A stretch of 64,000 nucleotides of DNA from an uncultured virus (IMG/VR IMGVR_UViG_3300030333_007861) (taxonomy: Duplodnaviria > Heunggongvirae > Uroviricota > Caudoviricetes). Below the pieces are notes generated by a model that did not search any database, was not told where the DNA came from, and saw only the letters and a program-made list of their open reading frames with translations. The stretch is from the IMG/VR virus record IMGVR_UViG_3300030333_007861; one strand, given 5' to 3'. This document shows, in pieces, positions 8,289-57,736 of the stretch (position 1 is the stretch's first letter; every line of letters starts with the position of its first letter). Both the position numbers and the translations under genes were made by a program.

Positions 8289-8317
8289 TTTCAAGTCAAG
8301 ATGCCTTATCCGAGGTC

Positions 8318-8692: not shown

Positions 8693-9014
8693 TGATGTTA
8701 CAACTCTCGTGTCCGCGCTCATTACTAAGATGGAGCGAATGGATGCCCAGATTGATGTTCTTCGTAAAGAGGTAGCCAATCCTGATATTATTCTGAAGAG
8801 GGCCGGATTGGTCCATGCTCGTTCCCCTACTGCTACTGATGTATGGGGGGACCCATTACGTGGTGATATCGATGAAGTTATTACAAAGGCTGTTGGGGAA
8901 GTAGGTGACTCACCTATCACAATGCCCAATACTAATGAAGAATGGAACGAGATGTCTTGGGATGATATCCATGTCATGGCTGAACAAGCCGCAGGAACTG
9001 AAGGAAGGAATTGA
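8685..9014 (+). CDS. Hypothetical head-region protein, possible small scaffolding protein
   Basis: N-terminal coiled coil; C-terminal MSWDDIH motif shared with the protease/scaffold C-terminus; ATG 8685 preferred over track start 8664. Confidence 0.7.
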   Translation: MSDDVTTLVSALITKMERMDAQIDVLRKEVANPDIILKRAGLVHARSPTATDVWGDPLRGDIDEVITKAVGEVGDSPITMPNTNEEWNEMSWDDIHVMAEQAAGTEGRN

Positions 9015-9670
9015 AGATGAAACCAATGCGAGTAGGGGCGGGTGAATACGCGCCAGATTTAGATGATTTAATGGATAAGGCCAACGACATGTTGGAGAAG
9101 TTAGAACGTGATGATAGCCACATGCAAGACGTTCGCGGGGTAGAAGCCGTTCGACCATCGCATTATTGGACGAATCAAGATTTACCAGAAGACAACATTG
9201 AATCTGTAAGTAAGAAGTCACCTTCTGCTGAGAATGTCAATCTCTTAGATGCTAATCCCCATCAGACAGGCTCTACTGTTAGAGTGCATGAAAACAATGC
9301 TGGTGGCCCANNNNNNNNNNCAGCACATCCTACAGAGGCTCTCACGAAGTCCATTAAAGGGATTCTGAAGGCAGACAAATGCCCTACTTGTGGGAGTAAA
9401 TTAGAGAAGGCCGGGGCCGTATGTAAAGATGTAGAGTGTGCTGAAAAGATGTCAAAAGGCCCTCTTGATGCACTAATGGGTGGTGGAGACGAACCACCTA
9501 TGGATGATGATTCCCCCATGTCCCCTATGGACGATGATGACTCATCAGATGAGAGCGCGGAAGGGCTTGCTTCACGTATCAAGAGCATGGTAGACAAACT
9601 TGCTGATATGAACGATGATGAAGATGAGGATGAACCACCTGAAATGTCGTCACCTGAAGAGGACATGTGA
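9011..9670 (+). CDS. Hypothetical acidic protein with CxxC...C motif (spans N gap 9311-9320)
   Basis: ORF open on both sides of the gap; continuity across the gap is not certain. Confidence 0.55.
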   Translation: MKMKPMRVGAGEYAPDLDDLMDKANDMLEKLERDDSHMQDVRGVEAVRPSHYWTNQDLPEDNIESVSKKSPSAENVNLLDANPHQTGSTVRVHENNAGGPXXXXAHPTEALTKSIKGILKADKCPTCGSKLEKAGAVCKDVECAEKMSKGPLDALMGGGDEPPMDDDSPMSPMDDDDSSDESAEGLASRIKSMVDKLADMNDDEDEDEPPEMSSPEEDM

Positions 9671-9682
9671 GGTGGTGGTCAT

Positions 9683-12600
9683 GTGGACTCTGAAGAGGCG
9701 CAAGACATCTACAAAAGAGCGATAGTCTCATTCATCAAACATGATGATGAAGATAGTGCTGCTGAACTCTATTTCGCTGTGAGGAATCTCACAGCACATG
9801 GGCACGAAGTTCTACATAATGATGAGCAGATTCTTCTCCGTGCCCAAGATATCTTAGAGGGGTGTGGAGTAGAGGATGATTTAATCAGAAAGAAAATAAG
9901 GACCGCTAAAGAAGGCGATGTCGGCTCTCTTTCTTACATACCTAAATATGTGACCGCTCGGCAAGGCAGGACACATAATCCACATCAAAGTATGGAAATG
10001 GTAGATACTCATCGAGATTTAACCCCTATTTCATTAAATATTGATGGTGAGCCTTTCGCATTAGGGAGAAGGGAATGGAATATCATCAAAGAGTCAGAAG
10101 ATGAATCTTTACGATTAGACGCATTACGCGCATTATTCTCCTATCGTCCAGAATCTGACAGAATTATTGAACCTGAGATTACGATTCAAGGGATAGGTAA
10201 AACAAGAGGAGAGAAGGCTCGCTCTCATGAGAATGTGCCCCATCCTCTGGAACATATCGGATGGTTTCGTAGTGAACCTTATGGGCAAGGGAGAGAGACG
10301 AGTGGCATTGAGCGTTTAACAAGAGCGCTGTATTCCAATGAGGACTCATTACCTGAGATAGATAGACGCAGATTCACCCATGCTGATGAATACAAATCTT
10401 ATCCTCAGCAAAGAATACTTGGGGAATATGGGAGTGGGTCATTACCACAAGGGCGATTACGTCAGATTGGGTTAGAGGATTGGGAAGCAGAATGGAAGAA
10501 AAGATTCGATGGTGAGCCCGATGAGAGAGACTTCATCGACCATACCATACTTCGTAATGAGGGGGTCCCCTCATCTACTATATGGTCCATGCTGTATGAT
10601 AAAGATGGGAAAGGGGGCAGCAGTGAGCGATTCAAAGCATCAATGGGCATGGTTGATTCCGAAAAGGGTATGAGGTTAGGACTTCTACCTGCATTGTTAG
10701 GATTGGAAGGATTACCACAAAAGCAGGCTCTTGATATTCTTGGTTGGTTTATGGATGGCGGAGAGGGGGAAGTCCCGGGATTTGAGAAAATACAAGGCGC
10801 TGAAGGGCTTTTCACAAGAATGTTTAGAGAAAGACTCAGTGTCTTACATCATAATCTAACTGATGACCTTCTGCATAACGGTTCTCACATACCGCATTTA
10901 GATAGTGGTGTGAGGCCCGGTGGTGAAGATATAGACCTCAGTGAACTATCACCCAGAAGGTGGGGAGAGATTCTTCATACTGTGCCATCAGACCCGAGTA
11001 TAGGTAGAGGTGAAGGTAAAAGTTTACTCACGTCTATACTAAGAGGGTCATTTCTACCTGATGTGAGAGACGGGAAAATGAAGAAGGTGACAGATAAGAG
11101 CGAAGAGCCGGTGTTGTCCCATCAACTATTGGAAGATTATGTGAAGGCTGGTCATATCACACCTGAGCAGATGGGAAGAGTGGAAGAATTGGCGCGAAAT
11201 GATTTATCTATAGGTGGGGCGAGACATACTGTCGTAGATGGATATAGTGCATTAGATTCTCCTTGGCGCCCTGTGAAGAATCACGCTAATCATGATGAGG
11301 ATATCTCAAAAGAGCCCAGTGCAGCAAAGGTAGTTCATGATACATTGAGAAATAGGAATGGTGGAGGCCATGCTTTAGGACATATGGATGTCGCCCGCTT
11401 CTTCCATGAGATGTTCCCTACTCTTTTCTTCCATCGACCCACAGATGCGCTTTTAGAAAGGGGTAAAGAGGCACCTATTGACCCAAAAACTGGAAAGACA
11501 TTAGACCCAATGGGGTGGGATGAACATGATGACGCTTCTGTAGTCTATAGTCGCCCCCATCACCCTAATGTCAATCATGAAGTCATGGGGGATGATGACC
11601 CTGATAGGTCTCTGAATTTCGGACCTTGGTTTGGTGGTTTAGCGGGGCAACGGTTTGCCACTATGGAGCGAGAGCCTTTTCCTGATACGTTTGCTCGGGT
11701 AAGACATGATACAAGAAATGTTTTCACATTCGACCCAGCCTCACATATTGATTCTAAAAGAGGTAGTAGGCGAGAAGATTGGGAGAAAGCAGGTAATTCA
11801 GACCGGAGAGATGCGGGGGAGGATAAGAGAAGGACACTACCCACTGACATAACAGGGTATACTCAGGTAAATCACACAGTTGGTTCTAAACCGTCCAGAA
11901 TAAATGATATGTTCGAGCACCATCCAGCGCACTTACACCTTCTTGATTTATTGTTTCAGATGAGTGACCCTGATAATATACATCCTGAATGGGATATCCT
12001 AAGTGGTGACTTAAGTAAGACATTGAAAGATATGATTGAGAGGCCTGAATTGTTCGAAAGTATGGATAGAGACCCTATGAGCCGCACAATTGGGCAATTA
12101 TCTCAGCGTCTTCTCCATACCGGTCTTTTGACTGAAAGTGAATATGACCCAGAAGAGGAAAACCAGTTGGCTCTTTATCGGCACGATTCCGATAATGATG
12201 TATTAGACCATGGCATGCATGTGACACAAGAAGGGGTTTTGAGAGTTTATACACAGATGCTTGAATATCTACAAGGTAAAAGGGACACACCGCCTGCTTT
12301 ACCTGACCCTTATGAAGCAATAGAATCCCAAAGTGATGGGCTACCTATCATCGCCCCGAGCATAGAACATCTTGCGAGGATACCTGAAGTGGAGAAATTA
12401 CGACCATTGCATAGGGGCCGGGGTAATATACGTGGGGAAGGATTACCACATGATGGTATTATAGATTCCATTCATGATTTGGAGGATATATCAGGGAAGA
12501 ATTCACCCTTCAGAAACCTCTTAGTCACACCAAGAGAGAAGGAAGAAATACTGAGGCAAGGACTTCCGGGCCCATTATTGGATGAAGGGACTAAAGGATA

Positions 12601-15514
12601 TGTGATAGGACCCCACCCTAACATAATCACACGGGCTTTACTTGATGAGTTATCAGCAATGGATGTTGGTGATACTGAACCTGAGCGAGTGCAAGAATAT
12701 GCTAAATTCATGAGAGGTTTGAGAAATCAGATATTGACATATAGGGAGACCGACCCCGTTGGTGGGAAAACAGAAGATAATCGAGATTACCTATCACGTG
12801 GACTCATGTCCTCTTATGATAGTATGATACCTATTGCGCGAGGCTTATCTTATCTTTTCCAGCAAGACCCTCGATTCAAAGACTCATTAGATGACGCTGA
12901 GAACCATTCTCGTATTTTAGAGGCAGCAATAGAAGGTAGTAGAACTATGTCCTCTGAAGGTAGAGAGGCCTTCGCTAAACAATTAGAAGAGGCGGGATAT
13001 GATGATGAGGAGACTTTGAAAAGAATCAGAGATGATGAAACTCGTCCTTGGTTCAACACATCCAGATTCCAATTGGATGATATTGAGCAGTCGGATAGTG
13101 TGCGATTACAGGATGCTCTTTCTATGGAGAAGGAAGAGGGTGCTTTAACTGGCGCTGATTTGATTCAACACTATATCGAAGAGCATGAAGATGATGAAAC
13201 CAAAAAGCAACACGGGTTGGATTTCCTTACCCGCATGGAAGAACATGATGGGCATCAGTCCTTCAAAGATTCTCTCTCAAAATATCATAAAGGGAATTGG
13301 ATTAGGCGTAGTAAAAAATATATCGATAGAGGTGTACCAGTCACGCAGTTCGAAGAGAGTGAGAAATATCATTCAGAGTTGGGAGCGATAGGTGACGCGA
13401 TAAAGAGAATCAAGCAGGACCAAATGAAAGAAGGCTCATTGAATTTAACTGAAGGTGTGAAACTCCCTTCTGATTTCAAACCTACTCCTACACTGATGGA
13501 TGTTCATTCAAATAAAAGACGGAAAATGCAAACGGGGAAAGCACAGAGGCGTTTTTATGAATCTCTCCCTGAATTTCTCTATTCACGTGTCGGTCTCAAT
13601 GTAGGGGTGGGTGGTGAAATAGGACATAGCAGAAAACTTAGACATAGTGGGGGTGCTACCGCCTTACCTGTCGATAGTGGCAGATTTGATTCATTCAGGC
13701 CTATGCCTATCCTTGGCTCAATAGGGTTATCACGTCAAATGGGCCAGACTGCTTACCCTAAGATAGATGTCGATTTCGGGGATGGTAGTGAGGGACCTGT
13801 CATACATCATAATCCACTTGGTTATCCCCGCCTTCAAACAAGGTTTCCACCCAATGTGATGCAAGACGTTCTTGGTAGAGAATCACCAGAACCTAAACAG
13901 ACATCATATGAAGGAGATTCCGCTGCGGTTATTGGGGCTCAGATGCAACCGGGAGAGAAAGTAGATTTGTTACGCTCTTTTGATGCACTGACTGACCTCG
14001 ACCTTCTCATTAAAGAGGAAGATGAGCGAGATAAAGGGGAATTCCTCCCAGTCAAAGCCATGCATCGTATATTTGATGTGAAGGACTTAGAACACTTGCG
14101 CGGTTTCAGTGGTGATTGGGTCGTCAGTATATGGCCTCAAGGTGAACGACTCATTCTTGAGAGAGAAGGGGATGAGGTTAAGGTGAGGGATAGTGAAGGG
14201 GGAGAACACGATTTACCTAAGAGCACATTGAAAGGAATCAAAGAATTACATGATGAGAAGGACTACATCCTTGATGGGGTGTGGGATGGTGAGCATCTTC
14301 ACATTGTAGACATCATCAAATTCGCAGATGAAGACATGGAAAACATGCCTACTAAAGATAGAGTGCGTCATGTTCGTGCCACATTTGAGGCTAATGAAGA
14401 AGTGAGTATTCCAGCCCCAGTGAATACACGAAGAACTGATGATGTGGGACTTGAAGATTCTATAGAATCTCTTTTCAAAGAGCCGAATGCGAAACAGATT
14501 CTCTTACGAGATGCCGATGCTACCTATATGATGGGGGAGACCAGACATCCGAAATGGGTATTGTTGAGCCCGATGAAGAAGTTAGATGTTCGTATTGTAG
14601 CACTTAGTGGTAAAAACGCAAGGTTGGGTGTAGGGCCAATCTTTTCAGATATCGCTGAAGAGATAGGGAATCGCTCTGTTGAATATGAAGATGAACACTA
14701 CATGGATGTTGGCTCTACCCGTCTTTCAGAGGATAAAGAAGAGGGTGATTATATCACTGTGAAGGTGGATAGTGTAACCCACTCTGAAAGGAAGGGGCAC
14801 GACATCTATCGTTTGAATGGCGCAACTTTCGACTCTGATAGTGAAGCAGGAGCAACTGATAGTGTAGAGACTCTCTCTATTATGTCTGGAGTCCCAGACG
14901 ATGTCCCACACCGTATCCGTGTCACTAAAGGGAATGTCCTCATCAATTTCCCCGCTTTGAAGACTGATGTAATTTACAAGACTGAGAATTCAGGGAATGT
15001 TTGGCTGGTGTATGAGCCTGATGCTCCTCATGATTACGCGCTGAAATTAGCAGAGTCACAGAGACCATTCTGGGAGGCACCTGCTGCTATTCTACTCAGG
15101 TCAGAGAAGGAAACTAAGAATGAGAATGAAGAAAAGGCACATGTAGAGCCAGAACCTCTGGCTAATCATAAGAAGAAACCGAAGAAGGTAGATGAGGACC
15201 AATTTTTCAAACGTGGTCTCATAACTGCTCTGGAAGTAATTGACAGGATGTTGAAAGAGAAGAGTACATTCACAGGGCCGAAAGGACTGGGTATTGATTT
15301 CGCCACACCGATAGAGTCACCAAGTGGGCCTACTGAGGTCATTAATGAATCAGGACTTCCTGATTATGACCCGATAGATGGACATGATGCTCCTAAATCT
15401 GCTAAAAAGAAGCATCTTAAGAAGTTCCCAATAAAAACAGAAAGAGATGAGGGAGCGACATTAACAACCTCTCAAGATGAGAGTTTTCTTGATTTAAGAG
15501 AGGCGCCTGTTTGA
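9683..15514 (+). CDS. 1943-aa head-module protein with C-terminal degenerate ATP-dependent DNA ligase-like (NTase+OB) domain
   Basis: GTG start after GAGGTGGTGG; ligase motif order recognisable at ~14110-14860 (WVVSIWPQGER, YILDGV, HIVDII, ILLRD..ATY..G...PKW). Confidence 0.75.
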   Translation: MDSEEAQDIYKRAIVSFIKHDDEDSAAELYFAVRNLTAHGHEVLHNDEQILLRAQDILEGCGVEDDLIRKKIRTAKEGDVGSLSYIPKYVTARQGRTHNPHQSMEMVDTHRDLTPISLNIDGEPFALGRREWNIIKESEDESLRLDALRALFSYRPESDRIIEPEITIQGIGKTRGEKARSHENVPHPLEHIGWFRSEPYGQGRETSGIERLTRALYSNEDSLPEIDRRRFTHADEYKSYPQQRILGEYGSGSLPQGRLRQIGLEDWEAEWKKRFDGEPDERDFIDHTILRNEGVPSSTIWSMLYDKDGKGGSSERFKASMGMVDSEKGMRLGLLPALLGLEGLPQKQALDILGWFMDGGEGEVPGFEKIQGAEGLFTRMFRERLSVLHHNLTDDLLHNGSHIPHLDSGVRPGGEDIDLSELSPRRWGEILHTVPSDPSIGRGEGKSLLTSILRGSFLPDVRDGKMKKVTDKSEEPVLSHQLLEDYVKAGHITPEQMGRVEELARNDLSIGGARHTVVDGYSALDSPWRPVKNHANHDEDISKEPSAAKVVHDTLRNRNGGGHALGHMDVARFFHEMFPTLFFHRPTDALLERGKEAPIDPKTGKTLDPMGWDEHDDASVVYSRPHHPNVNHEVMGDDDPDRSLNFGPWFGGLAGQRFATMEREPFPDTFARVRHDTRNVFTFDPASHIDSKRGSRREDWEKAGNSDRRDAGEDKRRTLPTDITGYTQVNHTVGSKPSRINDMFEHHPAHLHLLDLLFQMSDPDNIHPEWDILSGDLSKTLKDMIERPELFESMDRDPMSRTIGQLSQRLLHTGLLTESEYDPEEENQLALYRHDSDNDVLDHGMHVTQEGVLRVYTQMLEYLQGKRDTPPALPDPYEAIESQSDGLPIIAPSIEHLARIPEVEKLRPLHRGRGNIRGEGLPHDGIIDSIHDLEDISGKNSPFRNLLVTPREKEEILRQGLPGPLLDEGTKGYVIGPHPNIITRALLDELSAMDVGDTEPERVQEYAKFMRGLRNQILTYRETDPVGGKTEDNRDYLSRGLMSSYDSMIPIARGLSYLFQQDPRFKDSLDDAENHSRILEAAIEGSRTMSSEGREAFAKQLEEAGYDDEETLKRIRDDETRPWFNTSRFQLDDIEQSDSVRLQDALSMEKEEGALTGADLIQHYIEEHEDDETKKQHGLDFLTRMEEHDGHQSFKDSLSKYHKGNWIRRSKKYIDRGVPVTQFEESEKYHSELGAIGDAIKRIKQDQMKEGSLNLTEGVKLPSDFKPTPTLMDVHSNKRRKMQTGKAQRRFYESLPEFLYSRVGLNVGVGGEIGHSRKLRHSGGATALPVDSGRFDSFRPMPILGSIGLSRQMGQTAYPKIDVDFGDGSEGPVIHHNPLGYPRLQTRFPPNVMQDVLGRESPEPKQTSYEGDSAAVIGAQMQPGEKVDLLRSFDALTDLDLLIKEEDERDKGEFLPVKAMHRIFDVKDLEHLRGFSGDWVVSIWPQGERLILEREGDEVKVRDSEGGEHDLPKSTLKGIKELHDEKDYILDGVWDGEHLHIVDIIKFADEDMENMPTKDRVRHVRATFEANEEVSIPAPVNTRRTDDVGLEDSIESLFKEPNAKQILLRDADATYMMGETRHPKWVLLSPMKKLDVRIVALSGKNARLGVGPIFSDIAEEIGNRSVEYEDEHYMDVGSTRLSEDKEEGDYITVKVDSVTHSERKGHDIYRLNGATFDSDSEAGATDSVETLSIMSGVPDDVPHRIRVTKGNVLINFPALKTDVIYKTENSGNVWLVYEPDAPHDYALKLAESQRPFWEAPAAILLRSEKETKNENEEKAHVEPEPLANHKKKPKKVDEDQFFKRGLITALEVIDRMLKEKSTFTGPKGLGIDFATPIESPSGPTEVINESGLPDYDPIDGHDAPKSAKKKHLKKFPIKTERDEGATLTTSQDESFLDLREAPV

Positions 15515-15543: not shown

Positions 15544-16980
15544 ATGATGAGTCTCGCAGCACCGAGGAGTATGGACCCAGTCCTGCTCAAAGGTACTGGT
15601 GAAGACCTCATCGTTGCTGGTTACGCATCTGTCGAAATGGTTGACAAGCAGGGTGACCTTATCACCCGCTCTGCCTTGAAGGACGCCTTTGGGAAATTCA
15701 TGAAGGCGAATGGATATCGTAATGTTCAACTCGCTCATTCTAATATTCAAGTAGGGGAAGTTATCCCTGAATACAGTGATAGTAATGGGCGTCTTTGGAA
15801 ATCAGAAGTTGACGATACCGGGATGTTCGTCGTTATTCGACTACGTGGTGACATCGAGAAGGCTCGTGAAGTCGCCGCTGAAATCCGAAAGGGGAACCTA
15901 CGCTCGTTCTCTATCGGAGGGCAAGCATTTGAGCGTATCAATAAAACAGATTCCTCTCGGGGCGATTACCGCGAAATAAGCAGGATGGAACTACATGAAG
16001 TTACTATCTGCGAGAAAGGTATCAATCCAGAGGCGCAATTTCGCATATTGAAAGAAGACAAAGGTGAAAACATGAGTGACCCGATGAATGAACTACAAGA
16101 CGTACTTGAAAGACTATCCAAGAAATTGGATGATAAAGAGGCAATGGCCTACGAAGATGAAAAGAAAGATTCCCCGAAGTCTGAAGATGCAGACTCTAAA
16201 GATGACAAGGACAAAGAGAACCCTGAGAAGGGAGAAATGCCTGCAGGTCTTAGAGAGCACATGAAAGACAAGAAGGGTGATAAAGACGAATCCGATGATG
16301 ATAAGGATAACAAAGATGAGAAAAAGGATGATGATAAAATGGAAAAGAACGACATGGATGATGTCATAACGACTGACTATTTGCAGTGGCTTGAGTCCAC
16401 TGTGAAAAGCGCAGGGTATGACCCAACTGCAGCACGCGACCACTTTGATGGTGTGGAGAAAGGATACGGTAAGGGAGAAGATGGTGCTTCTCACCGAGGA
16501 CAGCCCGCTCTGGGAATTGTCGGTGAAGGTATTTCTGCTCCTAAGCCCAACTTCGGCGCTGGCGGGAAAGGTAACCAGACCGTCATCAAGACTGATGACT
16601 TCATCAACATGGAGAGTCTATCCCCATCACAAATCGAAGAAGCCTATGAAGTCTACAAGGCTGCCGCTAAAGAGCAGCATTTGAAGACCGACCTTGGTAA
16701 CTACTTCGAGACCCGTCTCCAGAAGGAGATATCTGAAGAGAATGATGAGAAGGCCCGTCAGGAATATGATTCCCGAGAGCCTCTCGCTGACCTCCAGAAG
16801 GCAGTTCTTGCTCTCGGAGAGAGGATTGATAATATCACCTCTGGGGAGTCTGAAACCTTCCAGAAGTCCGCACAGGCTTCAATCAATGTTCCTGTTCCTG
16901 ACACGAGTGAATTGGCAACCATGACGTGGGATGATGTCCACCGTCTTGCAGGCCGCGCTCTTCGGGGAGGTGACAACTGA
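15544..16980 (+). CDS. Prohead protease (HK97 family) fused to acidic scaffolding region
   Basis: VAGYASVEMVDKQGD, QLAHS, LRSFSIGG, ELHEVTIC..GINPEA; directly upstream of the capsid gene. Confidence 0.92.
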   Translation: MMSLAAPRSMDPVLLKGTGEDLIVAGYASVEMVDKQGDLITRSALKDAFGKFMKANGYRNVQLAHSNIQVGEVIPEYSDSNGRLWKSEVDDTGMFVVIRLRGDIEKAREVAAEIRKGNLRSFSIGGQAFERINKTDSSRGDYREISRMELHEVTICEKGINPEAQFRILKEDKGENMSDPMNELQDVLERLSKKLDDKEAMAYEDEKKDSPKSEDADSKDDKDKENPEKGEMPAGLREHMKDKKGDKDESDDDKDNKDEKKDDDKMEKNDMDDVITTDYLQWLESTVKSAGYDPTAARDHFDGVEKGYGKGEDGASHRGQPALGIVGEGISAPKPNFGAGGKGNQTVIKTDDFINMESLSPSQIEEAYEVYKAAAKEQHLKTDLGNYFETRLQKEISEENDEKARQEYDSREPLADLQKAVLALGERIDNITSGESETFQKSAQASINVPVPDTSELATMTWDDVHRLAGRALRGGDN

Positions 16981-18116
16981 TGGCAAGAGATTACGTTAGA
17001 ACGATTCAAGACATGGAGCGATATTACTACGGTGGAGCAGCCCTCACAGGTTATTCCTACAGTAGTGGGGACATTCTGAAAGCAGATGCCCCTCTGATGT
17101 CCACTACGGCTGGTACCTATCAGGCCATCTATGGCCGCAAAGTGTGGTCCCAACTGAACCAAGAATTCAACGCTTTCAGCATTCTACCTAAGAAGCCATG
17201 GGAGCGAAGTGGATGGAGAATCATCACCGCTAAGCCTTCCTTCACGAAGGGTGGCGGTGTTGCAGAAAACGCAACTCTCCCAGATACCACGAAGCCTGAC
17301 TTCCTCCATGTAGCAGCCAAGCCAAAGACTGTTGCTCACACCTTCGACTTGAGCGAAGTGAGCATGTTCCTGTCTGACAAGGATGACGGTCTTGGTGACG
17401 TCCGCCAAGTGCTGAAGGAAGAAATGGGTAAGCATCACGCTGACCACATCAACCGAATGCTGTTGACTGATGTCGACACACCAGCAGCCAACGATTTGGA
17501 GTCGCTTGACCGTATCACGTCCGACCCAGACAACATGACGACTGGCACTACGCACGTCAGCGCAACAACGGACCACGACATCTACTCCATCACCCGTGAT
17601 GGAAGCGTCGGTTTCCACAGCGCAGAAGTGAGTGTTGACTCAACCAGCACGAACAGGAACCTGTCTCTTGACCACATGGATACGCTCTTCCAGCAAGTCT
17701 GGACCCGTGGTGGTAATCCAAAGGTCATCCTAACAGGATACGACACCCTGATGCGTGTACAGCAACTCCTACAGAGCCAGCAGAGGTTCATGGAGTCCAA
17801 GAGGGTCACCCCAACCTACAACGGTGTTAAGGGTGTTCCCGGAATCGAGGCTGGGTTCATTGTGGCCACCTACAATGGTGTGCCCATCATCCCAACCAAG
17901 GACATGCCAAGTGATGGTATCAGCCGTCTCTACTACCTCGACACTGACTACATGTGGTTCCAGACTGCAATTCCAACCCAATACTTCGAGTCTGGTATTG
18001 AAACGGGTGACCCGTTCGCAATCAACCGACTCGGTCAAGAAGGTCTTTACCGAACAATGGGCGAAATCTGGTGCTCTTTCTTTGGAGCACAAGGGAGCGT
18101 GCGAGACCTACAGTGA
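16980..18116 (+). CDS. Major capsid protein (HK97 fold)
   Basis: Follows the protease; 378 aa; GGVAENATLP, TYNGVPII, GSVRDL motifs; strong C-ending codon bias consistent with high expression. Confidence 0.9.
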   Translation: MARDYVRTIQDMERYYYGGAALTGYSYSSGDILKADAPLMSTTAGTYQAIYGRKVWSQLNQEFNAFSILPKKPWERSGWRIITAKPSFTKGGGVAENATLPDTTKPDFLHVAAKPKTVAHTFDLSEVSMFLSDKDDGLGDVRQVLKEEMGKHHADHINRMLLTDVDTPAANDLESLDRITSDPDNMTTGTTHVSATTDHDIYSITRDGSVGFHSAEVSVDSTSTNRNLSLDHMDTLFQQVWTRGGNPKVILTGYDTLMRVQQLLQSQQRFMESKRVTPTYNGVKGVPGIEAGFIVATYNGVPIIPTKDMPSDGISRLYYLDTDYMWFQTAIPTQYFESGIETGDPFAINRLGQEGLYRTMGEIWCSFFGAQGSVRDLQ

Positions 18117-20006: not shown

Positions 20007-20273
20007 TTGACGCCCGAGGAAATTTACAGAATGGCGCGCCAAGGTTGGACTGAGGCCGTAGGTGACTCTGTACAAAGCGAAGATGATGACCGCCTTCGTG
20101 GTGTTATCAAAGAGCAGAATGTTCGCTCACGTAATGTGAGAGATGTTGTGAATATCGGTTCAGGTACACGCTGCACATATTGCGGAATGTTACATTTTTG
20201 TTATGTTGAGAAATGTGGCGCTTGCGCTAAACCTATGCAGTATAACATGGGGAAAACGGAGCGTGTGATATGA
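20007..20273 (+). CDS. Small Zn-finger protein
   Basis: CTYC...CGAC; TTG start after GAGGTGA. Confidence 0.65.
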   Translation: MTPEEIYRMARQGWTEAVGDSVQSEDDDRLRGVIKEQNVRSRNVRDVVNIGSGTRCTYCGMLHFCYVEKCGACAKPMQYNMGKTERVI

Positions 20274-20419
20274 ATCCAATTGATGCTGCTTGGTCTTTAT
20301 TGAAAGCCACAACATGGCTCACTCCAGACGAGGCTGACGAAATAGAGCGGAAAAGAATCGAGCAGGAAAAAGCAAGGCGTGTAGAAGAAGAACGTAAGAA
20401 AGAATTAGGAGGTGAATGA
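20270..20419 (+). CDS. 49-aa protein MNPIDAAWSLLKATT... (AWxLLK-tagged), not in the ORF track
   Basis: Hand-translated; ATGA overlap with the previous gene and fills the gap exactly. Confidence 0.75.
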   Translation: MNPIDAAWSLLKATTWLTPDEADEIERKRIEQEKARRVEEERKKELGGE

Positions 20420-24699: not shown

Positions 24700-25875
24700 A
24701 TGAACGCGTTAGATATTGCTTGGGCCATCTTAAAACTCGACCCTGAGAAATTCACACCCGAGGAAAGGCGGGAAATAGGAAGAACAGGCGGTCTACGTCG
24801 GCTACGGGGTACTGCCGGGGGTCTGGTAGGAGGTAAAGATGTCCCACTACCTACCGATGCAGCCGTTGCACGTCTAATCGCTGCTCAACGTCGTCCAGAG
24901 GGGGACATTGGTGAAGGGAAGACCCCGAAACAAACTGTATTGCCGGGGGCAGGGCCACAAGGAGCACCAAAAGCGGGGTATGGTGGCTTTAGCCCAGTAG
25001 GTGAAAAGCAGATGATGGACGACCCTAACTTAGAAGGTGAATTTAGGCCTCCTCCACGAATACCTTTACTTGAAGGGCAAGAAGCACTTGATGCGGAAGC
25101 CGCTTTATCACCAGAGCCTCCAACTCAAGATGAGCGATATGAGGAAATGGGGAGAGGTGTTAAAGAACTCATCCGTCCATTACAAAGGCAACAACGAAGG
25201 GAACAACTTGCCAGTATCTCTGATTCAGAAAAGCGGGATTTGAGAGAGCAAGCGATTAGGCAAGGGATGGATAGGATATGGCACGAGCATATAAGGGATT
25301 CAGACTGGGGAGGACGAGAGAGACCGCCCAGTGATGCCCATCGGCAACTTTTCACGCCAGAGGCTGAACGTGCAAAGCCAATCATAGAAGATTATATTCA
25401 GAGTATTAGAGATGAGATGGGAGGCGCTCCATCATCCCAAGAGATTCGTGACCAAATGAAAAACTTCCGTGATTATCTGATGCGGGGAGGACAGTCGCAT
25501 CCCTTCTACGACGAACCCGGTGATGAAAGCATCTTGGACCGACTCAATGAGGAAGGTATCCATCCCGGGGGTATAGAGCATTATCTACATCAGAAACACA
25601 TCAGGCCTTATGAAATTCAAGAGGGTCGACGCGAGAGAGCAGAGAGGAAAGTACAGGTCCAACGAAGAAAGAAGAAAGAACTCGCGGCTCAGAAACGCTT
25701 TGAGGAGGAGGACCCGCAAGCACGCTTGAGGCAACAATTCGAAAGCATGATAGAGGGTTCTGATGAAGAGCAACCTGCTCAAAAAACAGTGGGAGTGAAA
25801 AGCCAAAGACCACCTCCCCCTACAAGAGGGCAGAGGAGAGTAGGTGTGCAGCGAGAAGGTGATTCAAATGAGTAG
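24700..25875 (+). CDS. Charged, disordered hypothetical protein with N-terminal MNALDIAWAILK tag
   Basis: 391-aa ORF, GAGGTGA RBS. Confidence 0.75.
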   Translation: MNALDIAWAILKLDPEKFTPEERREIGRTGGLRRLRGTAGGLVGGKDVPLPTDAAVARLIAAQRRPEGDIGEGKTPKQTVLPGAGPQGAPKAGYGGFSPVGEKQMMDDPNLEGEFRPPPRIPLLEGQEALDAEAALSPEPPTQDERYEEMGRGVKELIRPLQRQQRREQLASISDSEKRDLREQAIRQGMDRIWHEHIRDSDWGGRERPPSDAHRQLFTPEAERAKPIIEDYIQSIRDEMGGAPSSQEIRDQMKNFRDYLMRGGQSHPFYDEPGDESILDRLNEEGIHPGGIEHYLHQKHIRPYEIQEGRRERAERKVQVQRRKKKELAAQKRFEEEDPQARLRQQFESMIEGSDEEQPAQKTVGVKSQRPPPPTRGQRRVGVQREGDSNE

Positions 25876-52000: not shown

Positions 52001-53307
52001 GAACATCCATTGCTGGTGGTGGAGGTGCTTCTGCGCTCAACGACCTTTCTGATGTATCTTACTCAAGTGGCGATTTGACTATCAGCAGCCTTGATACAGT
52101 CACATTTGCTAATGGTGGAGATGCAGCATTAAAGGTTGCAGCAACAAGTTCTGGGACCGATGGTAGAGATTTAACAATAGAAGCAGGTTCAGCACCAACG
52201 GGTTCAGCGAACCAAAGCGGTGGAGATTTAATCCTAAAAGCAGGCGGTGGTGATGGTACTGGAACGTCTATAATGACGTTCAATACCAAAGTAAGTGGAA
52301 CAGATGCTGTAGCAGAAAGAATGAGAATTCATACAAACGGCTTTGTTGGTATTGCTGAAAACGCCCCCGATGCTCCACTACACGTTAAATATTCATCAAC
52401 AAGTGATGCAGACCCGGCATTAATATTAGAAAGCACAGCCACAAGTGGAGTAAATTCTCCTGATATCAAACTCTACAGAAATAGTTCAAGTCCCGCAGAT
52501 AATGATTACTTGGGGAATTTGATTTTCACTGGTAATAATTTACATGCGAGCGACGGCTCAGTAGTAGATACAGATATTGAATACGCCCGTATAGAGAGTA
52601 GGATTTATGATGTCACAGATGGTACTGAAGATGGCGCTCTTATATTTTCAACTAAAGTTGCTGGCTCAAATAGTAGTACAATGTACATCAAAGATGGAAG
52701 GGTAGGTATAGGAACTGAAGTACCTGATGGTGAACTTCATATTTCAGGCGCAGGCCATCAACTTCTGACTATTGAGAGAGAAGCCAATAATAACGGCTAT
52801 GGTACAGGAATACATTTCCAATTGGGCGATTCTGCCTCGTCTACTGCTGGGCACGATTATGCTGCAATATATGGTGGTATAGAAGATAATACAAATGGTA
52901 GTGAAGATGGTCAACTTGTTTTCCAAACTTCTACTAATGGAACAAATACCACTAAGATGTTCATTAATTCAGTTGGTAATGTGGGAATTGGTACAGATGC
53001 TCCCAATCAACCACTTACAATTGAAGGCACAATGAGTATGAAAGAGCAAGCAAATGCGAATGCAGATGTCGCTGCTTATGGTCAATTGTGGATTAAGAGT
53101 GATACTCCCAACGGCCTGATGTTCACAGACGATGCTGGTAATGATGTAGCCATTGCTGCTGGTGCTAAACTCATGTCAGGTACTGGTCTCTATACAGATA
53201 GTAGTAGCGGGGGTTATTGGACTGGTCCGGGTGTCCCAACTACTGTTGATGATGCGATAAATCGTATTGCGGCAGTCGTCGTGGCTCAACATGGTCAAAT
53301 TGGTTGA
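49090..53307 (+). CDS. Tail fibre / receptor-binding protein
   Basis: 1405 aa; repeated G.VGIGT..P...L.(V/I) beta-helix units; acidic T/D/G-rich. Confidence 0.8.
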   Translation: MTDPLSGHTAAQNTLGADGLRDGDALSSPTMTNLLQGVHGNGILRLEDTVLGSTRNAVNSQPGAVSRASAYTLTIQGGYVVLDGQIYEFANGPGNTVTMTIGNSSHGSGTALAASGEQSLYTIYVGSQGGQSRTYHAGGAAVATGQGLYPSLPSQYLVDYDTGTSQVNAQVVVLATVRCEYKSSGGGNHKVDVIEINDKRTFIRNNPLYMTPLTSGALTTDDGGVTSQVRRNATDGVQSAADLRALMASSETGDIGTVTASGSATLLDVSALWSSTGKSGTSLGFGPGDGLDRAGNRMGDELFYAGQENSATGTVSRRLFGMGVSAPSSAISSDASYTITSYGDAFYMLSPNAGVTVTLNPEKSGSNYLFPEGHIVEVCNDGDGTIEFDDYGTASATITVDNTGAPPPGVQYIGQGDTIQLISTAGTTVTLTMGGQADSTTSATTSGTTLDAKTLASGSYATSALHATAQAVEIATAINHHTEFTATNSSNVITVTQVNPGSSGNTTITITEIGATGFSKTNFTGGGGMGELVTAGKRATFIYEGSVWVRCDYQAAISALMTSFQLEDGDGTEVTINDGKEVKFVEGGGVDINWTDTSDGSDSDPYDMTFTLDVHGLTEEAIASGDYIAFSDEGTTDDPTRRESIDDIATLFAGAGLTASSAVMAVGAGNLIDVQANQVDVDLSEAAAAVMAEADEFVFLDNDDSSAAKRESLSDLLDTIAGTVGTTGLDRSGATLVVSDLHPVGVSGAANQLLTDDGDGTVTSEANLTFDGSNLHVTTSVSNSASVIFENTHTDTNAGPILQLFRNPSDDAVTSGDLIGRVEFKGHFFDGADYDQTKIWAAINAEIEHYQGDGSVRFDVLRNGTETTYLKVNGNTQDIIFNEGATSDFDFRVEGNSDPNLLFTDGTADAVGIGTDAPNQKLTVEGTISLKEQADANADTAAYGQIWVNTATPNELYFTTDAGDDIQLTSGTSIAGGGGASALNDLSDVSYSSGDLTISSLDTVTFANGGDAALKVAATSSGTDGRDLTIEAGSAPTGSANQSGGDLILKAGGGDGTGTSIMTFNTKVSGTDAVAERMRIHTNGFVGIAENAPDAPLHVKYSSTSDADPALILESTATSGVNSPDIKLYRNSSSPADNDYLGNLIFTGNNLHASDGSVVDTDIEYARIESRIYDVTDGTEDGALIFSTKVAGSNSSTMYIKDGRVGIGTEVPDGELHISGAGHQLLTIEREANNNGYGTGIHFQLGDSASSTAGHDYAAIYGGIEDNTNGSEDGQLVFQTSTNGTNTTKMFINSVGNVGIGTDAPNQPLTIEGTMSMKEQANANADVAAYGQLWIKSDTPNGLMFTDDAGNDVAIAAGAKLMSGTGLYTDSSSGGYWTGPGVPTTVDDAINRIAAVVVAQHGQIG

Positions 53308-53319
53308 TGGAGAAGTAAC

Positions 53320-53448
53320 ATGAGCGATATACGTGCTATTCTCGCTTTCATGTTCTTCTTCTTACCTTTGGTTATGATGTTCTTTTACTTCTATCTTGCA
53401 CGCAAATTCGATAGGATTATTGAAGAAGCATATCGTGAGGGAAATTGA
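53320..53448 (+). CDS. 42-aa single-TM membrane protein
   Basis: Hand-translated MSDIRAILAFMFFFLPLVMMFFYFYLARK...; GGAG RBS; TGATG-coupled to the next gene. Confidence 0.65.
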   Translation: MSDIRAILAFMFFFLPLVMMFFYFYLARKFDRIIEEAYREGN

Positions 53449-53615
53449 TGGAGTTCCTTCAAGTTCTGGTGATAGTTGCTTTAGTGTTGTTTGCGTTATA
53501 CGTGGCTCTAATGCGGCATATTGAGCGATGGTTAGACAATGTTTTCCAGAATGTAGGCCTTTCTAAAGGCGAGATTCAAGACATGGCTTGGACCCGTCTC
53601 CACAATAAGAAGTGA
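53448..53615 (+). CDS. 55-aa single-TM membrane protein
   Basis: Hand-translated MEFLQVLVIVALVLFALYVALMRH... Confidence 0.65.
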   Translation: MEFLQVLVIVALVLFALYVALMRHIERWLDNVFQNVGLSKGEIQDMAWTRLHNKK

Positions 53616-53619
53616 GGAT

Positions 53620-53829
53620 ATGGGTGAAATCCTCGACCGACTCAAGCAACACTGCCCTTCTTGTGAAGAGCGAGTGCTTGCGCGCCGTATCGAGGGACGA
53701 TATGTAAATGAGAGAAATACACGTATTCTCATTTGGGAATGTATTGATTGTGGAACATTGTGGCAAAAAACGCGTAGGAAGATTGAGAAAGAGAAGCCTC
53801 TTGCGGCTAATGAAGCGTGGGGATTATGA
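53620..53829 (+). CDS. Zn-ribbon protein
   Basis: CPSC...WECIDCG.LW. Confidence 0.75.
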   Translation: MGEILDRLKQHCPSCEERVLARRIEGRYVNERNTRILIWECIDCGTLWQKTRRKIEKEKPLAANEAWGL

Positions 53830-53960
53830 AAGGCAAATCGAAGAAGACCGGAGTGGTAATGGTCATCTCAGTAGGTGGTAAGCCCCCGAAGAAGCCTGAG
53901 AAAACTGCGGACACGAAGAAAGGCGAGGCTATGAATATCGCCTTCAATGTACTGAAGTGA
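53826..53960 (+). CDS. 44-aa Lys-rich protein ending in the tag-like EAMNIAFNVLK
   Basis: Hand-translated; ATGA overlap with the previous gene. Confidence 0.65.
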   Translation: MKGKSKKTGVVMVISVGGKPPKKPEKTADTKKGEAMNIAFNVLK

Positions 53961-53964
53961 GTAC

Positions 53965-54108
53965 ATGTCTTCTCGTAGAAAAGTCCTTGTGAAAGCCTAC
54001 GGTGATAGGTGTGCTTATTGTAATAGATATGAGGGTGATAGTAGAGGGTGTGGCATGCATAAGAATATGTCAGTGAATTCTTCTTGCCCTATGTGGAATA
54101 AAGTGTGA
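53965..54108 (+). CDS. 47-aa Cys-rich protein (VLVKA...CAYC..C..H...C)
   Basis: Hand-translated ORF. Confidence 0.6.
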   Translation: MSSRRKVLVKAYGDRCAYCNRYEGDSRGCGMHKNMSVNSSCPMWNKV

Positions 54109-54307
54109 GTGTGGCATTATCGAGGCAATTATTCCACAATATTATCAATAAACTTGTATTCTTAACATTCAATAATAAGAAAGCCTTGCGCCTAATTGTG
54201 GAAGACGTCCCTGACGAGGTTCTCAAAGTAGTCGCACCGCATGAAATCACTGTGCAGGTGCTTGCTTAGACCCCAAGTTTCATTTTCTATTTGCGCCTCG
54301 CTATAGT

Positions 54308-54496
54308 GTGAGCGCGCGCCATAGCCCTGTGGACCTCGCCCTTCTATTCCTCAAAGGGTTCCCTGCAAAATTTGCAGGTAATTGTTCTAAGTGCAAGCAG
54401 TGGTTCCCTGTTGGTACAGACATAGTGCCTGACGGTAAAGGTGGGTTCAAGCACGCCGGATGTCGCGTCCGAACTGAATTTGGGGAGGTCTGGTAA
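54308..54496 (+). CDS. Small Zn-finger protein with PVDLALLFLK tag
   Basis: CSKC...HAGC; TAATG-coupled to the next gene. Confidence 0.65.
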   Translation: MSARHSPVDLALLFLKGFPAKFAGNCSKCKQWFPVGTDIVPDGKGGFKHAGCRVRTEFGEVW

Positions 54497-54813
54497 TGCT
54501 CCCAATGAACCTCGCTTGGCGGTTGCTCAAGGAGAAGAAGCCTGACCCACGCCTGAAAGCAGCAGGAGTGAGTGGGTATAACAAACCGAAGCGCACGCCA
54601 AAACATCCAAAGAAATCACATGTGGTTGTAGCAAGGTCAGGTGGTAAGGTCAAAACAATTCGATTCGGTGAACAGGGTGCAGATACTGTAACTGAGGATA
54701 AACCAAAAGGTAAGCGAGCAAAGAAGCGAGCGTCATTCAAAGCACGTCATGCTAAGAATATTAAACGTGGCCCCATGAGTGCTGCGTATTGGGCGGATAA
54801 GGTGAAGTGGTAA
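54496..54813 (+). CDS. Basic protein with PMNLAWRLLK tag (resembles DUF5754-type small viral proteins)
   Basis: KTIRFGEQGA...SFKARH...SAAYWA...W pattern; family assignment from memory only. Confidence 0.7.
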   Translation: MLPMNLAWRLLKEKKPDPRLKAAGVSGYNKPKRTPKHPKKSHVVVARSGGKVKTIRFGEQGADTVTEDKPKGKRAKKRASFKARHAKNIKRGPMSAAYWADKVKW

Positions 54814-55184
54814 TCATGAACCCAATGGACCTCTCTTGGCGGTTGCTCAAAAAACAATATGTGCCTGAATGGCATCTCAAGCAACGATTCCCTAAAGGGA
54901 AACCTATTACGGAGGTGAAGCCATGGAAGAGAATGCCTCGCCCCCCGAAGGCGAGAACAACACACGGCTTTCAAGGTGAACCTATACCTACAAATGAAGA
55001 AATACTCGATAACCCACCTGTTGCTGTCCCTGATGTAACTGAACATACTGATGAGGAATGGCGGAAGAAGATTCGGATGAGAATGGCGGATGACGAGAAT
55101 GCAGAAGTCGTTCCCGAGTTTAGCCCTGAATTTCAAAGGTTCTGGACAGGCGAACCAATGGACCTCTCTTGGCGGTTGCTCAAA
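54501..55184 (+). repeat. Three ~30-bp direct repeats ccaatggacctctcttggcggttgctcaa (54501, 54821, 55154), plus a degenerate copy at ~54325
   Basis: Copies 2 and 3 are identical over 30 bp; copy 1 has 2 mismatches. Confidence 0.95.
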
Positions 55185-55520
55185 GACCGCCAGTCCCCTG
55201 AAGCGTTTAGACACAAGAAAGAGTATGATACTCAGTATGAATCCAGCCCGTCCCGTCATAAATATCGCGCAGAGTTAGCCAGAGAGCGCCGAAAGAAAGG
55301 GGTCATGGGACACGGTGGTGCTGACATGAGTCACACACGGCAGCACACCATAGTCCCAGAGGACCCTCATTCTAACCGCGCTCGTCACTTCAAAGAGCGT
55401 GGCACTCTAAAGGCAGAGGAGCCGATTGAGCGCGAAACTCTTAGAGAAGTGAAGGCACTTCGACGCGATGTCAAGAAGGTCATTCCTCCTCGTCATACTC
55501 CCCAGAAGAAAGATTCGTGA
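54816..55520 (+). CDS. Tagged polyprotein-like ORF with two PMDLSWRLLK tags; second module basic with an HNH-like DMSH...NRAR segment
   Basis: ORF 54807-55520 in the track; ATG 54816 preferred. Confidence 0.7.
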   Translation: MNPMDLSWRLLKKQYVPEWHLKQRFPKGKPITEVKPWKRMPRPPKARTTHGFQGEPIPTNEEILDNPPVAVPDVTEHTDEEWRKKIRMRMADDENAEVVPEFSPEFQRFWTGEPMDLSWRLLKDRQSPEAFRHKKEYDTQYESSPSRHKYRAELARERRKKGVMGHGGADMSHTRQHTIVPEDPHSNRARHFKERGTLKAEEPIERETLREVKALRRDVKKVIPPRHTPQKKDS

Positions 55521-55595
55521 ACCACGAAGTGAAGAACTGAAGACTCCATAATCCAACATCGAGTATGACAAGGAAGACGACTACATCCCATACAC

Positions 55596-57098
55596 TCATT
55601 GTCCCTTCCTCGCAATGATATCATCAATGCGTAGAACAGCCGTAGCAACCTCTGTGGCTGATGTAATGACCTGCTTTACGAGTTCACGAGGCTCCCAGAT
55701 TGCACGCTCGCCAGTATCACATACAGAACCTATTCCATTATCATCGATGTAGAGCCCGTAACTATCTGGGCATGAACGAAGTTCCATCACTACATCAAGT
55801 GGGTCCATACCTGCATTAGCAGCAATGGCGGCAGGGATAATTTCCAGTGAATCAGCATAGGCCTCCAAGCACATTCGCTCCCGGGCACTAAGACCGCTTT
55901 CACCAGTGGCGTAATTCCTCACACCTATGGCAGATTTCGATAGAGAGGCTCCCCCGCCCGGCAGCGCTGCCATATTATTGTGATATAAGGCAGTGACACC
56001 AATGGCGTCATCAAAAGCGCGCTCATATTCATCAAGAGTCTGTCGTGTTGCTCCTCTCACAACCAGTGTGACTACAGTTGATGATGGTACACTCACAGTG
56101 ACATAATCGAGGTCACCAATACGTTGGCTATCCACCACTGACTTATGTTCGGTGTTCTGGTATGCATCTGTGACATCAATAAGCCGGTGATATACTGGAT
56201 GGCCGGTAATGTGAGAGAGTGCAGTCATATCTGAATCTTGCAGTCTTGATACTACAGCAATTTTCTGAGATGATAGATATTTAACAATGGCTTCATGGAC
56301 ACCGTCTCTGACAAACAGAATGCCGACTCCAAGGTCCACGATACGTTGTGCTGCCGCACTTAGCATGGTCAATTCTTGTTGTTGTATGGCTTGTATTTGA
56401 GTAGGGTCAGTGAATTGCATCTGCACATCTTGCATATTGAATCCATCCAAGCCACCATCAAGCATCAGAATACGGCCCTCAGTATCATGTTCCACATCAG
56501 TCGAGAATCCTTTACTTAATACCAGACCACTATGGATGTAAGAATCATCTATGGAACCACCAGACTGTGAAAGGACACGGATGTTGTCAAGGTCCCCCCT
56601 CACAGAATAAACAACTTCTTGACACAAAGATGACGCCTTTTCCAAATGGCTTTCGGCAGCCTTACCTCTCAGTGCTGTTCTCGCCACATCATGAGGGTCT
56701 ATCTCAGAGTCCCCTTCAGGTAAATTATCTAAGGCGATTGCACACGCCTCATTGAAAGCACGCACAATGGTTCTGGGATGAATCCCCCTCATCAGTAACC
56801 CTTCACTAAGAGCCAACAACTGCCCTGCAAGAACCACTACACTTGTCGTGCCGTCTTTACATTCCGCTTCTTGCGTCTTACTTGCTTCAACCATCATTTT
56901 CGCGCCGGGATGTACAGCATCTAATTCTCGCAGAATAGTGACACCATCATTTGTGATAATGGTGTCCCCTGTTTCATTCACGAGACATTTATCCATTCCC
57001 GCAGGTCCTAATGTAGACCTCACTGTTTCAGCGACATTCACCGCTGCTCGTATGTTACTCAATTGGGCTTCTCTTCCAGTTTTTCTTTCTTCTGTCAT
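55596..57098 (-). CDS. ths: Thermosome (group II chaperonin) subunit
   Basis: STLGPAGMDK, ITNDGVTIL, DGTTS, VRGAT, PGGGA, VLRIDD motifs; ATG 57098 follows GGAGG. Confidence 0.95.
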   Translation of the reverse strand: MTEERKTGREAQLSNIRAAVNVAETVRSTLGPAGMDKCLVNETGDTIITNDGVTILRELDAVHPGAKMMVEASKTQEAECKDGTTSVVVLAGQLLALSEGLLMRGIHPRTIVRAFNEACAIALDNLPEGDSEIDPHDVARTALRGKAAESHLEKASSLCQEVVYSVRGDLDNIRVLSQSGGSIDDSYIHSGLVLSKGFSTDVEHDTEGRILMLDGGLDGFNMQDVQMQFTDPTQIQAIQQQELTMLSAAAQRIVDLGVGILFVRDGVHEAIVKYLSSQKIAVVSRLQDSDMTALSHITGHPVYHRLIDVTDAYQNTEHKSVVDSQRIGDLDYVTVSVPSSTVVTLVVRGATRQTLDEYERAFDDAIGVTALYHNNMAALPGGGASLSKSAIGVRNYATGESGLSARERMCLEAYADSLEIIPAAIAANAGMDPLDVVMELRSCPDSYGLYIDDNGIGSVCDTGERAIWEPRELVKQVITSATEVATAVLRIDDIIARKGQ

Positions 57099-57112
57099 TT
57101 TTTTTCCTCCAT

Positions 57113-57736
57113 TTACCAAAGTACCTCGATATCATCGATGATGCCAGTGGATATGTTACGTGACTTTATCATACCATGTTCTCTACCATGGTTGAATAGT
57201 TCAAGATTCATCTTACAATCTTCAAGACAATATTTGGCTACCTCAGCATGCCTTCCTTCTCTCCACGCGACAGGCGCATCGGCGGAGCCCATGGACTCCT
57301 TACCTTCACCCAGAGTCGCTTTACATACATCATCCAAGGGCACACCGTATCCTGTCAATTGACGAAGTACTCTCGCTGTGTCAATCAGGAGTTCCTTCGA
57401 TTTACCCAAAAGGACACCTGCATAATGGCAGTCTAATGCATCGCGCAAAATAGGGAGGTCGAAACCACAGATGTTGTGACCTATGATTTTCCCGCCTTTC
57501 TTTATGTGATTCTCAAGATGTTCTCCGAGAACTTTAGGATGTAATGGGTGCCATGTACTATCAGTGATATCTATCTCCTGTTTAGAGAAAAGATGCCCTT
57601 CCTCACCATCCCAAGTAGCCACGATGACCGGGTCGAAAAGATGGGTCTTGTCCCATCCACCTATTTCATAAGAGAAATTCGATGTCTCAATATCTAATAC
57701 CATGATGTCACTCAATTCGTACCCTCCTGAACCCAC
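57113..57736 (-). CDS. RNase H-like DEDD 3'-5' exonuclease (start probably near 57715)
   Basis: VLDIET, GHNICGFDLPIL, YCLED exo I-III motifs. Confidence 0.85.
   Translation of the reverse strand: MGSGGYELSDIMVLDIETSNFSYEIGGWDKTHLFDPVIVATWDGEEGHLFSKQEIDITDSTWHPLHPKVLGEHLENHIKKGGKIIGHNICGFDLPILRDALDCHYAGVLLGKSKELLIDTARVLRQLTGYGVPLDDVCKATLGEGKESMGSADAPVAWREGRHAEVAKYCLEDCKMNLELFNHGREHGMIKSRNISTGIIDDIEVLW

Follow-up and report, generated by a model that had tools for sequence, protein, structure and literature searches.

Small genes of a marine archaeal virus are gained, lost and transferred at copies of a short in-frame repeat, as judged by comparing related viral sequences. The DNA analysed, a stretch of 64,000 nucleotides from an uncultured virus, is called the window here. 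The explanation favoured, with moderate confidence, is that one sequence of 30-38 bp would have a dual role, as a DNA exchange arm and as a peptide signal for head loading and cutting.

The tag array and its genome setting

By gene content the window belongs with group-A-like magroviruses, which are tailed viruses infecting marine Poseidoniales archaea. Group A magroviruses are described in PMC5434244, and their halovirus-like head module, replication block and thermosome are present in the window. Terminase, portal, S78 prohead protease, HK97-fold capsid protein and tail genes were identified on the capsid strand by Pfam/PHROG profile search, and thermosome, ERCC4 and PD-(D/E)XK nuclease genes lie on the opposite strand. 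PolB and primase were named by eye from their translations, and a full-length PolB was confirmed in the relative G007. The capsid protein is of the SU10 type, is encoded beside Peptidase_S78 and is nearest to haloviruses, with HCTV-5, HVTV-1 and HCTV-1 as best cultured matches (34% identity). Between the terminase and portal genes a conserved gene (4957-6441), found in most records tiled, has a C-terminal domain with a LAGLIDADG-like motif, recognized by eye, and a match to PHROG 5046. Magroviruses are abundant and the majority of their genes are without assigned function.

The cassette island is located between the tail-fibre genes and the thermosome. The sequence-only reading had placed near-identical 30-bp repeats at about 54501, 54821 and 55154 and a degenerate copy near 54325, and all four were recovered. 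Three 35-nt copies (repeat family D1) start at 54496, 54816 and 55149, spaced by 320 and 333 bp. Aligned in register over 30 bp, the copies at 54822 and 55155 do not differ (30/30); against these the copy at 54502 scores 27/30 and the degenerate one at 54326 scores 19-20/30. Within 53001-56000 the longest exact repeat was 30 nt, compared to at most 14 nt in 100 triplet shuffles. Each copy was also correctly described as encoding a peptide followed by an unrelated module. The tags read, in order, PVDLALLFLK, PMNLAWRLLK, PMDLSWRLLK and PMDLSWRLLK, and the consensus encoded by the 30-bp repeat is P-Φ-D/E-x-A-W-x-Φ-L-K, ten residues in length. The last tag (55155), the third near-identical copy, sits in frame within ORF 54816-55520, for which ATG 54816 is a likelier start than GTG 54807. 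Three tags had been overlooked, a C-terminal one at 53928 and two more at 20276 and 24706. The features are collected in Table 1.

Table 1. Tagged genes and related features of the window, with positions counted from its first letter.
Feature	Position	Strand	Description
Prohead protease (Peptidase_S78) fused to scaffold	15544..16980	+	Conserved ΦΦK at K16 and K170 around the catalytic domain; candidate tag cutter
HK97-fold major capsid protein	16980..18116	+	Invariant L33-K34-A35 after a short propeptide-like N-terminus
Small ORF, head-neck region	20271..20417	+	N-terminal degenerate tag 20276-20305
391-aa ORF after the tail tube gene	24700..25875	+	N-terminal degenerate tag 24706-24735
47-aa basic ORF	53817..53960	+	C-terminal tag 53928-53957, AMNIAFNVLK, then stop
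Module A	54308..54496	+	Degenerate tag 54326-54355 and putative Zn-binding cargo (phrog_1581)
ORF B	54496..54813	+	Tag 2 (54502-54531) and basic cargo B (54532-54810; phrog_7595, DUF5754-like)
Mobile 320-bp unit	54502..54821	+	Tag 2, cargo B and stop, up to tag 3
Polyprotein, first half	54816..55520	+	Tag 3 (54822-54851) and P/E-rich cargo C (54852-55154)
Polyprotein, second half	54816..55520	+	Tag 4 (55155-55184), basic cargo D (55185-55412; phrog_6437) and tail
Viral thermosome	55596..57119	-	Conserved right flank of the cassette island; group A magrovirus marker

Gain and loss of a cassette

The relative L038 is 98-99% identical to the window over most of the flanking DNA and is without the unit between tags 2 and 3. 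Its empty site keeps one tag with substitutions of its own. L181 and L182, which may stem from one campaign, have the same empty haplotype. Contigs of two studies lack DNA between the repeats, in line with the deletions that the sequence-only reading had proposed to look for: in run X2 position 54441 is joined to 54821, and in run X9, which belongs to a different study and year, a joint of 54500 with 54821 omits exactly 320 bp, and 24 letters at this joint fit either side. A collapse during assembly was rejected as the cause of the empty site, as the L038 junction has letters found in neither window copy and contigs of run X1 tile the window form (contigs 1, 5 and 7 without differences, contig 3 bridging the gap with 3 differences). 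Run X1 is possibly the sample from which the window was obtained. A joint from 54850 to 55152 in X1, with only 29 letters on one side, was set aside as repeat mapping. The L038 haplotype begins to diverge about 120 bp to the left of tag 2, which was counted against exchange at the tags.

The unit beginning with tag 2 and closing with tag 3 (54502-54850) was also found in distant viruses, at 92% identity in L008 and 85% in G011, with unrelated flanks. L025 matches the right part of this unit at 90%, likewise with unrelated flanks. In the comparison with G011, no other DNA of the window matches as well as the unit (capsid gene 78.6%), and the other long matches between the window and L008 are at 67-72%.

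Cargo identity, number and order all vary at the orthologous locus, another point on which a check had been suggested. Sequence of at least 1.5 kb was available at 51 of 67 thermosome loci; tags were present in 34 of these 51, cargo D in 34, cargo A in 4, cargo B in 1 and cargo C in 1, a near-identical relative. Since B occurs at just one of the 51 loci, its gain by the lineage of the window is the simpler reading. A second variable site adjoins the cassette island at 52100-53310, where the 3' part of a 1405-aa tail-fibre-like gene is replaced or rearranged in L038.

Distribution of the tag in magroviruses

A position matrix for the tag was run on 16 records, namely 15 of 23 virus records (mostly the longest were chosen) and the window. 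It gave 193 matches, compared to 1 in reversed ORFs. Each record holds 2-22 tags spread over several islands, 187 of the 193 tags are on the capsid-gene strand, and by their place in the protein 97 are internal, 80 N-terminal and 16 C-terminal. After removal of two near-duplicate records, tags were found on the late (capsid) strand in 92/369 variable and 0/273 core genes, and on the other strand in 3/328 variable and 0/139 core genes; core genes were thus tagged in 0/412 cases. A membrane helix was predicted for none of the 92 tagged variable late genes and for 35 of the 277 untagged ones (p 4e-5). Only 25% of the variable late genes are tagged, and this untagged majority was counted against the main explanation. 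The proposal that the repeat is a peptide label is supported at the level of a protein signal by the excess of matches over reversed ORFs, by this gene-class bias and by a peptide that is kept while its codons are nearly free (see below).

The 163 modules following a tag fall into 115 families, 88 of which are singletons. Pfam names were obtained for few of 108 tagged proteins, mainly DUF5872, DUF6321 and Zn fingers and one NUDIX. Very large proteins with a single terminal tag, of 3038 aa in G008 (5778-14897) and 1587 aa in G012 (9282-14042), are candidate large internal virion proteins. No publication on the tag was found by title or abstract, and no mention of it was met in passages of papers on magroviruses and archaeal viruses. 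A search by title or abstract gave no paper on magrovirus metaproteomes. A host-chromosome origin of the repeat found no support, with 0 exact matches of one degenerate repeat pattern in a prokaryote genome collection.

The tag is predicted to form an amphipathic helix, with a mean hydrophobic moment of 0.53 at 100 degrees compared to 0.31-0.38 at strand angles. Such a helix would suit docking in general, and the tag could be a docking or stability signal in the infected cell, involving the thermosome, a host factor or a degradation system, and not the virion; exchange would be unchanged. The virus does encode a thermosome, and C-terminal tags exist. This alternative is nevertheless considered unlikely, given that the tags keep to the capsid-gene strand, are located amid genes for head and tail and are missing from membrane proteins, and that the tag end matches conserved lysine sites of the protease and the capsid protein.

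Lysine sites and the proposed head loading and cutting

The motif ΦΦK was present to either side of the protease domain in 13/13 sequences, and likewise at K34 of the capsid protein in 13/13. It was enriched 1.9-3.2-fold in head proteins compared to 0.82-fold in replication proteins, homologues not being independent in these counts, and it occurred 0 times in the terminase with 7.8 expected. The control motif ΦΦR was also above expectation in some protein sets. HVTV-1, the nearest cultured relative (34% capsid identity), has a lysine at the same three places, the protease flanks and the capsid protein, but no tag in 41 kb scanned. A cut behind lysine is described for HK97, where gp5 is cut at K103/S104 (passages of PMC10275583).

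Proline follows the tag lysine in 0/146 cases, compared to 9-19 cases for every one of the seven positions thereafter; this agrees with a cut site, and also with the end of a helix. The residue after the tag lysine is varied (A 53, G 38, E 36, M 24; n=279). Among 279 distinct tags, 22 have at most six residues behind them; cutting there frees nothing, and these tags are counted against the cutting reading. Core head proteins carry ΦΦK but lack the A-W half, and none of them reaches the score of a full tag. In view of this and of the C-terminal tags, the first half of the tag is read as an address and the second half as a cut site. From these patterns it is judged probable that tagged modules are loaded into the head, and equally probable that they would be cut after the tag lysine.

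The tag might instead be a mere protease linker for the splitting of polyproteins, with no address. Half of the tags are indeed internal (97/193), ΦΦK is common to the protease's own flanks and proline is lacking after the lysine. However, ΦΦK by itself is enough in the core head proteins, conservation of the additional A-W half is strong, and many tags are either C-terminal (22/279) or at the N-termini of single modules (80/193), which makes the linker distinctly unlikely.

An origin of the tag as a copy of the scaffold tail was rejected, since the conserved tail of 13 protease-scaffolds is a different motif. The product of 8664-9014 shares an N-terminal coiled coil and a C-terminal W-D/E-D/E-[IV]-H motif with the tail of the protease-scaffold and looks like a second scaffold-like protein.

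The sliding-clamp-binding box has the form Q-x-x-L-x-x-F or Q-x-x-L-F. Motifs resembling it were found right after the tag lysine in 22/238 cases (tags in L001-L182) compared to 26/1891 windows elsewhere, with patterns chosen after seeing the data and homologues not independent. Cutting after the tag lysine could expose such a clamp-binding end.

Breakpoints and codon usage

In cargo zones, 14/50 alignment ends lay on tags in both partners, compared to 4.2% of the bases (p 1e-8). At 138 loci, 44/209 breakpoint sites were at tags (4.6% expected) and 33/209 at internal tags (2.7% expected), with the caveat that BLAST ends are pulled into shared tags and that related genomes are not independent counts. 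Stop codons showed no excess (56/209 breakpoint sites, 25.4% expected). Unrelated upstream segments, more than one in number, precede 16/27 multi-member cargo families. Exchange at the tags is thus regarded as very probable. With the empty-site haplotypes, the tag-to-tag unit in distant viruses and this enrichment of breakpoints, the suggestion that the repeat is a homology anchor for cassette swapping is supported. In G007 (3693-4249, L129) a 233-bp internal duplication of 96% identity has its ends at tags; the resulting protein contains two DnaJ-type Zn-finger modules.

A tag subclass picked by peptide alone comprised 42 tags from 12 genomes. Synonymous codons were shared at 0.57 between genomes, compared to 0.29 expected, 0.53 for capsid orthologues and 0.40 for thermosomes; within genomes the value was 0.60. 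The rare arginine codon CGG was used in 23/37 arginine codons of the subclass (6% expected), and the DNA of the subclass is conserved over about 38 bp, stopping right after the lysine codon. The other 143 tags had a codon identity of 0.37, compared to 0.33 expected, the peptide being kept with nearly free codons. With codons fixed in the subclass and near expectation elsewhere, the peptide is taken to be selected everywhere and one form of it to be homogenised as DNA as well. Recent duplication or recombination had been proposed from the identity at synonymous sites. The codon identity is real, but a recent local duplication is too narrow an account, as the same codons are kept across distant magroviruses, and the tag is therefore considered to be homogenised across the lineage.

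Modules might also be moved by illegitimate recombination, with selection keeping the joints at tags and DNA homology of minor importance. The breakpoint counts leave room for this, as degenerate tags carry many breakpoints (47/76), not significantly fewer than near-identical tags (19/23, p=0.08). It is nevertheless held to be highly unlikely in view of the subclass codons fixed across 12 genomes with their excess of CGG, the end of DNA conservation right after the lysine codon, and the X9 joint with its exact skip and 24 letters fitting both sides.

Fold-back of the repeat DNA did not go beyond that of shuffles (z -0.6 to 0.57, four folds). No integrase or recombinase family was found in 76/101 ORFs scanned of the complete record G007, and no dedicated tyrosine recombinase among 36 ORFs scanned of the window, which is a fragment. 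A scan for bacterial promoters gave no sigma-70-type site on the + strand. General homologous recombination is the likely route of exchange because neither a hairpin nor, in the G007 ORFs scanned, a recombinase was found. That the repeat is a site-specific recombination site or a mobile-element footprint of the integron attC type, with an incidental peptide, is hardly credible: the fixed DNA of one subclass and the cassette-like gain and loss would suit it, but there is no fold-back beyond shuffles, no integrase or recombinase family in the G007 ORFs scanned and no exact match in the prokaryote genome collection, and most tags keep only the peptide.

The cargo modules

Cargoes A, B and D match uncharacterised phage families, namely phrog_1581 (E 1.8e-7), phrog_7595 (E 7e-35) and phrog_6437 (E 5e-15), and no Pfam match at E<=0.01 was obtained for the window cargoes. 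The labels given earlier to three modules stand in part. The Zn finger of A has its CxxC...HxxC pattern, but not a Pfam match at that threshold. The DUF5754-like label of B is a fair lead from an Atlas neighbour (score 0.95) with this family on 47% of its members, again lacking a Pfam match. The HNH-like label of D has a weaker neighbour (0.93), with HNH_3 on 32% of members; it was not confirmed by Pfam, with no HNH match among 18 aligned members, nor by a fold search (Foldseek), with 0 PDB matches for a low-confidence model (pLDDT 66, relevant part <50).

In L049, cargo A follows a canonical tag, and the 3' end of module A differs between haplotypes. Cargo B has at least 592 homologues in viral contigs; the best 80 of these were untagged by the matrix, and most of the 80 start within a few residues of the end of the window's tag. 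One homologue, L183, has a related W-x-x-V-L-K leader. Cultured roseophages and cyanophages have B and D as well. In P0001, cargo D and its tail form a tagged protein of their own, and the window polyprotein is therefore a fusion at a tag. Magrovirus cargo D ends in a conserved G-T-L-K (window 55401-55412) beyond which the sequences diverge, possibly another lysine cut site. Tagged cargo-D genes on the strand opposite to the capsid gene (G004 5809-7251 and G011 85140-85740) suggest inverted insertions.

Proposed mechanism

In the dual-role explanation, recombination between tag copies would insert, delete or fuse the DNA lying between two tags, both inside a single genome and between magroviruses that infect the same cell. 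As the arm keeps the reading frame, whole tag-cargo genes or tag-cargo-tag-cargo polyproteins would result from crossovers. The P-Φ-D/E-x-A-W half of the amphipathic helix may dock soluble late proteins into the assembling prohead, and the ΦΦK end may be cut by the S78 head protease, which would use the same kind of site in its own chain and in the capsid protein. Individual modules would thereby be released within the head; they could condense DNA in the case of basic ones such as B and D or, if injected, act in the host.

More tentatively, the tags could form a lineage-wide, recombinase-free cassette system for virion cargo, with an arm of 30-38 bp that is kept nearly constant across distant viruses by the exchange itself and read in frame as a loading and cutting signal. 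Captured genes, including small ones common with cyanophages and roseophages, would become swappable, fusible and deliverable to the archaeal host. If this is true, a ten-residue rule predicts which magrovirus proteins enter the virion and where they are cut, and candidates for injected effectors of an uncultured marine archaeon could be listed by searching with it. Part of magrovirus mosaicism would also be explained, because the signal is coding sequence and recombination arm at once, so that every exchange would give a functional protein complete with its address. The tag would in addition be a compact loading tag for HK97-type shells.

Comparison with known systems

In integrons, gene cassettes form arrays of single-ORF units set off by repeats, with variable number and order. 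The magrovirus cassettes are likewise repeat-bounded single-ORF units of variable number and order, but no integrase, in the ORFs scanned, and no attC-like hairpin were found and the repeat is protein-coding. As in HK97, the S78 protease adjoins an HK97-fold capsid protein, and a conserved lysine followed by a small residue is found at the end of the propeptide and around the protease domain. In contrast to the magroviruses, the HK97 passages of PMC10275583 show no tagged accessory cargo.

In passages of PMC3012670 and PMC9958956, the T4 capsid targeting sequence (CTS) directs a variety of internal proteins into the core of the prohead, and the protease gp21 removes it. The magrovirus tag resembles the CTS as there described in being a conserved peptide of about ten residues on diverse, variable, non-core proteins and absent from core proteins, and its ΦΦK end, common to the protease flanks and capsid K34, may likewise be a site of the head protease. 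The cargo is, like T4 internal proteins, highly variable between relatives. T4 has a T4-type head and a gp21-type protease, which cuts after Glu, whereas magroviruses have Peptidase_S78, an SU10-type capsid protein and a tag ending in lysine. The CTS is N-terminal, in contrast to a tag that is also internal (97/193) and C-terminal (16/193). Packaging is proven for T4, whereas for magroviruses it is judged probable. No sequence likeness between CTS and tag is claimed; the magrovirus host is archaeal and each record holds 2-22 tags.

For the PeSL cassettes of RB49 and phi1, passages of PMC2839356 report recombination between repeats that shuffles small ORFs, with mini-circles shown, and describe the proposal of Repoila et al. 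(1994) of repeat-mediated shuffling of small ORFs at T-even IP loci. As in these loci, short conserved repeats flank small variable ORFs, without a known dedicated recombinase. One ORF is lost or gained between repeats and a single chimeric repeat is left, in the same way as filled and empty sites occur in close magrovirus relatives. The PeSL/IP arms as described lie between genes and consist of promoter and stem-loop elements of roughly 100 bp, whereas the magrovirus arm is 30-38 bp of coding DNA, in frame and without a stem-loop, so that polyproteins can also arise when modules are fused by exchange. In its way of working the magrovirus system resembles the T4 CTS and the shuffled T-even IP loci combined, but it belongs to neither and is not homologous to them. 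It differs from both in that the tag, a coding sequence, also serves as the arm of exchange and links modules in polyproteins.
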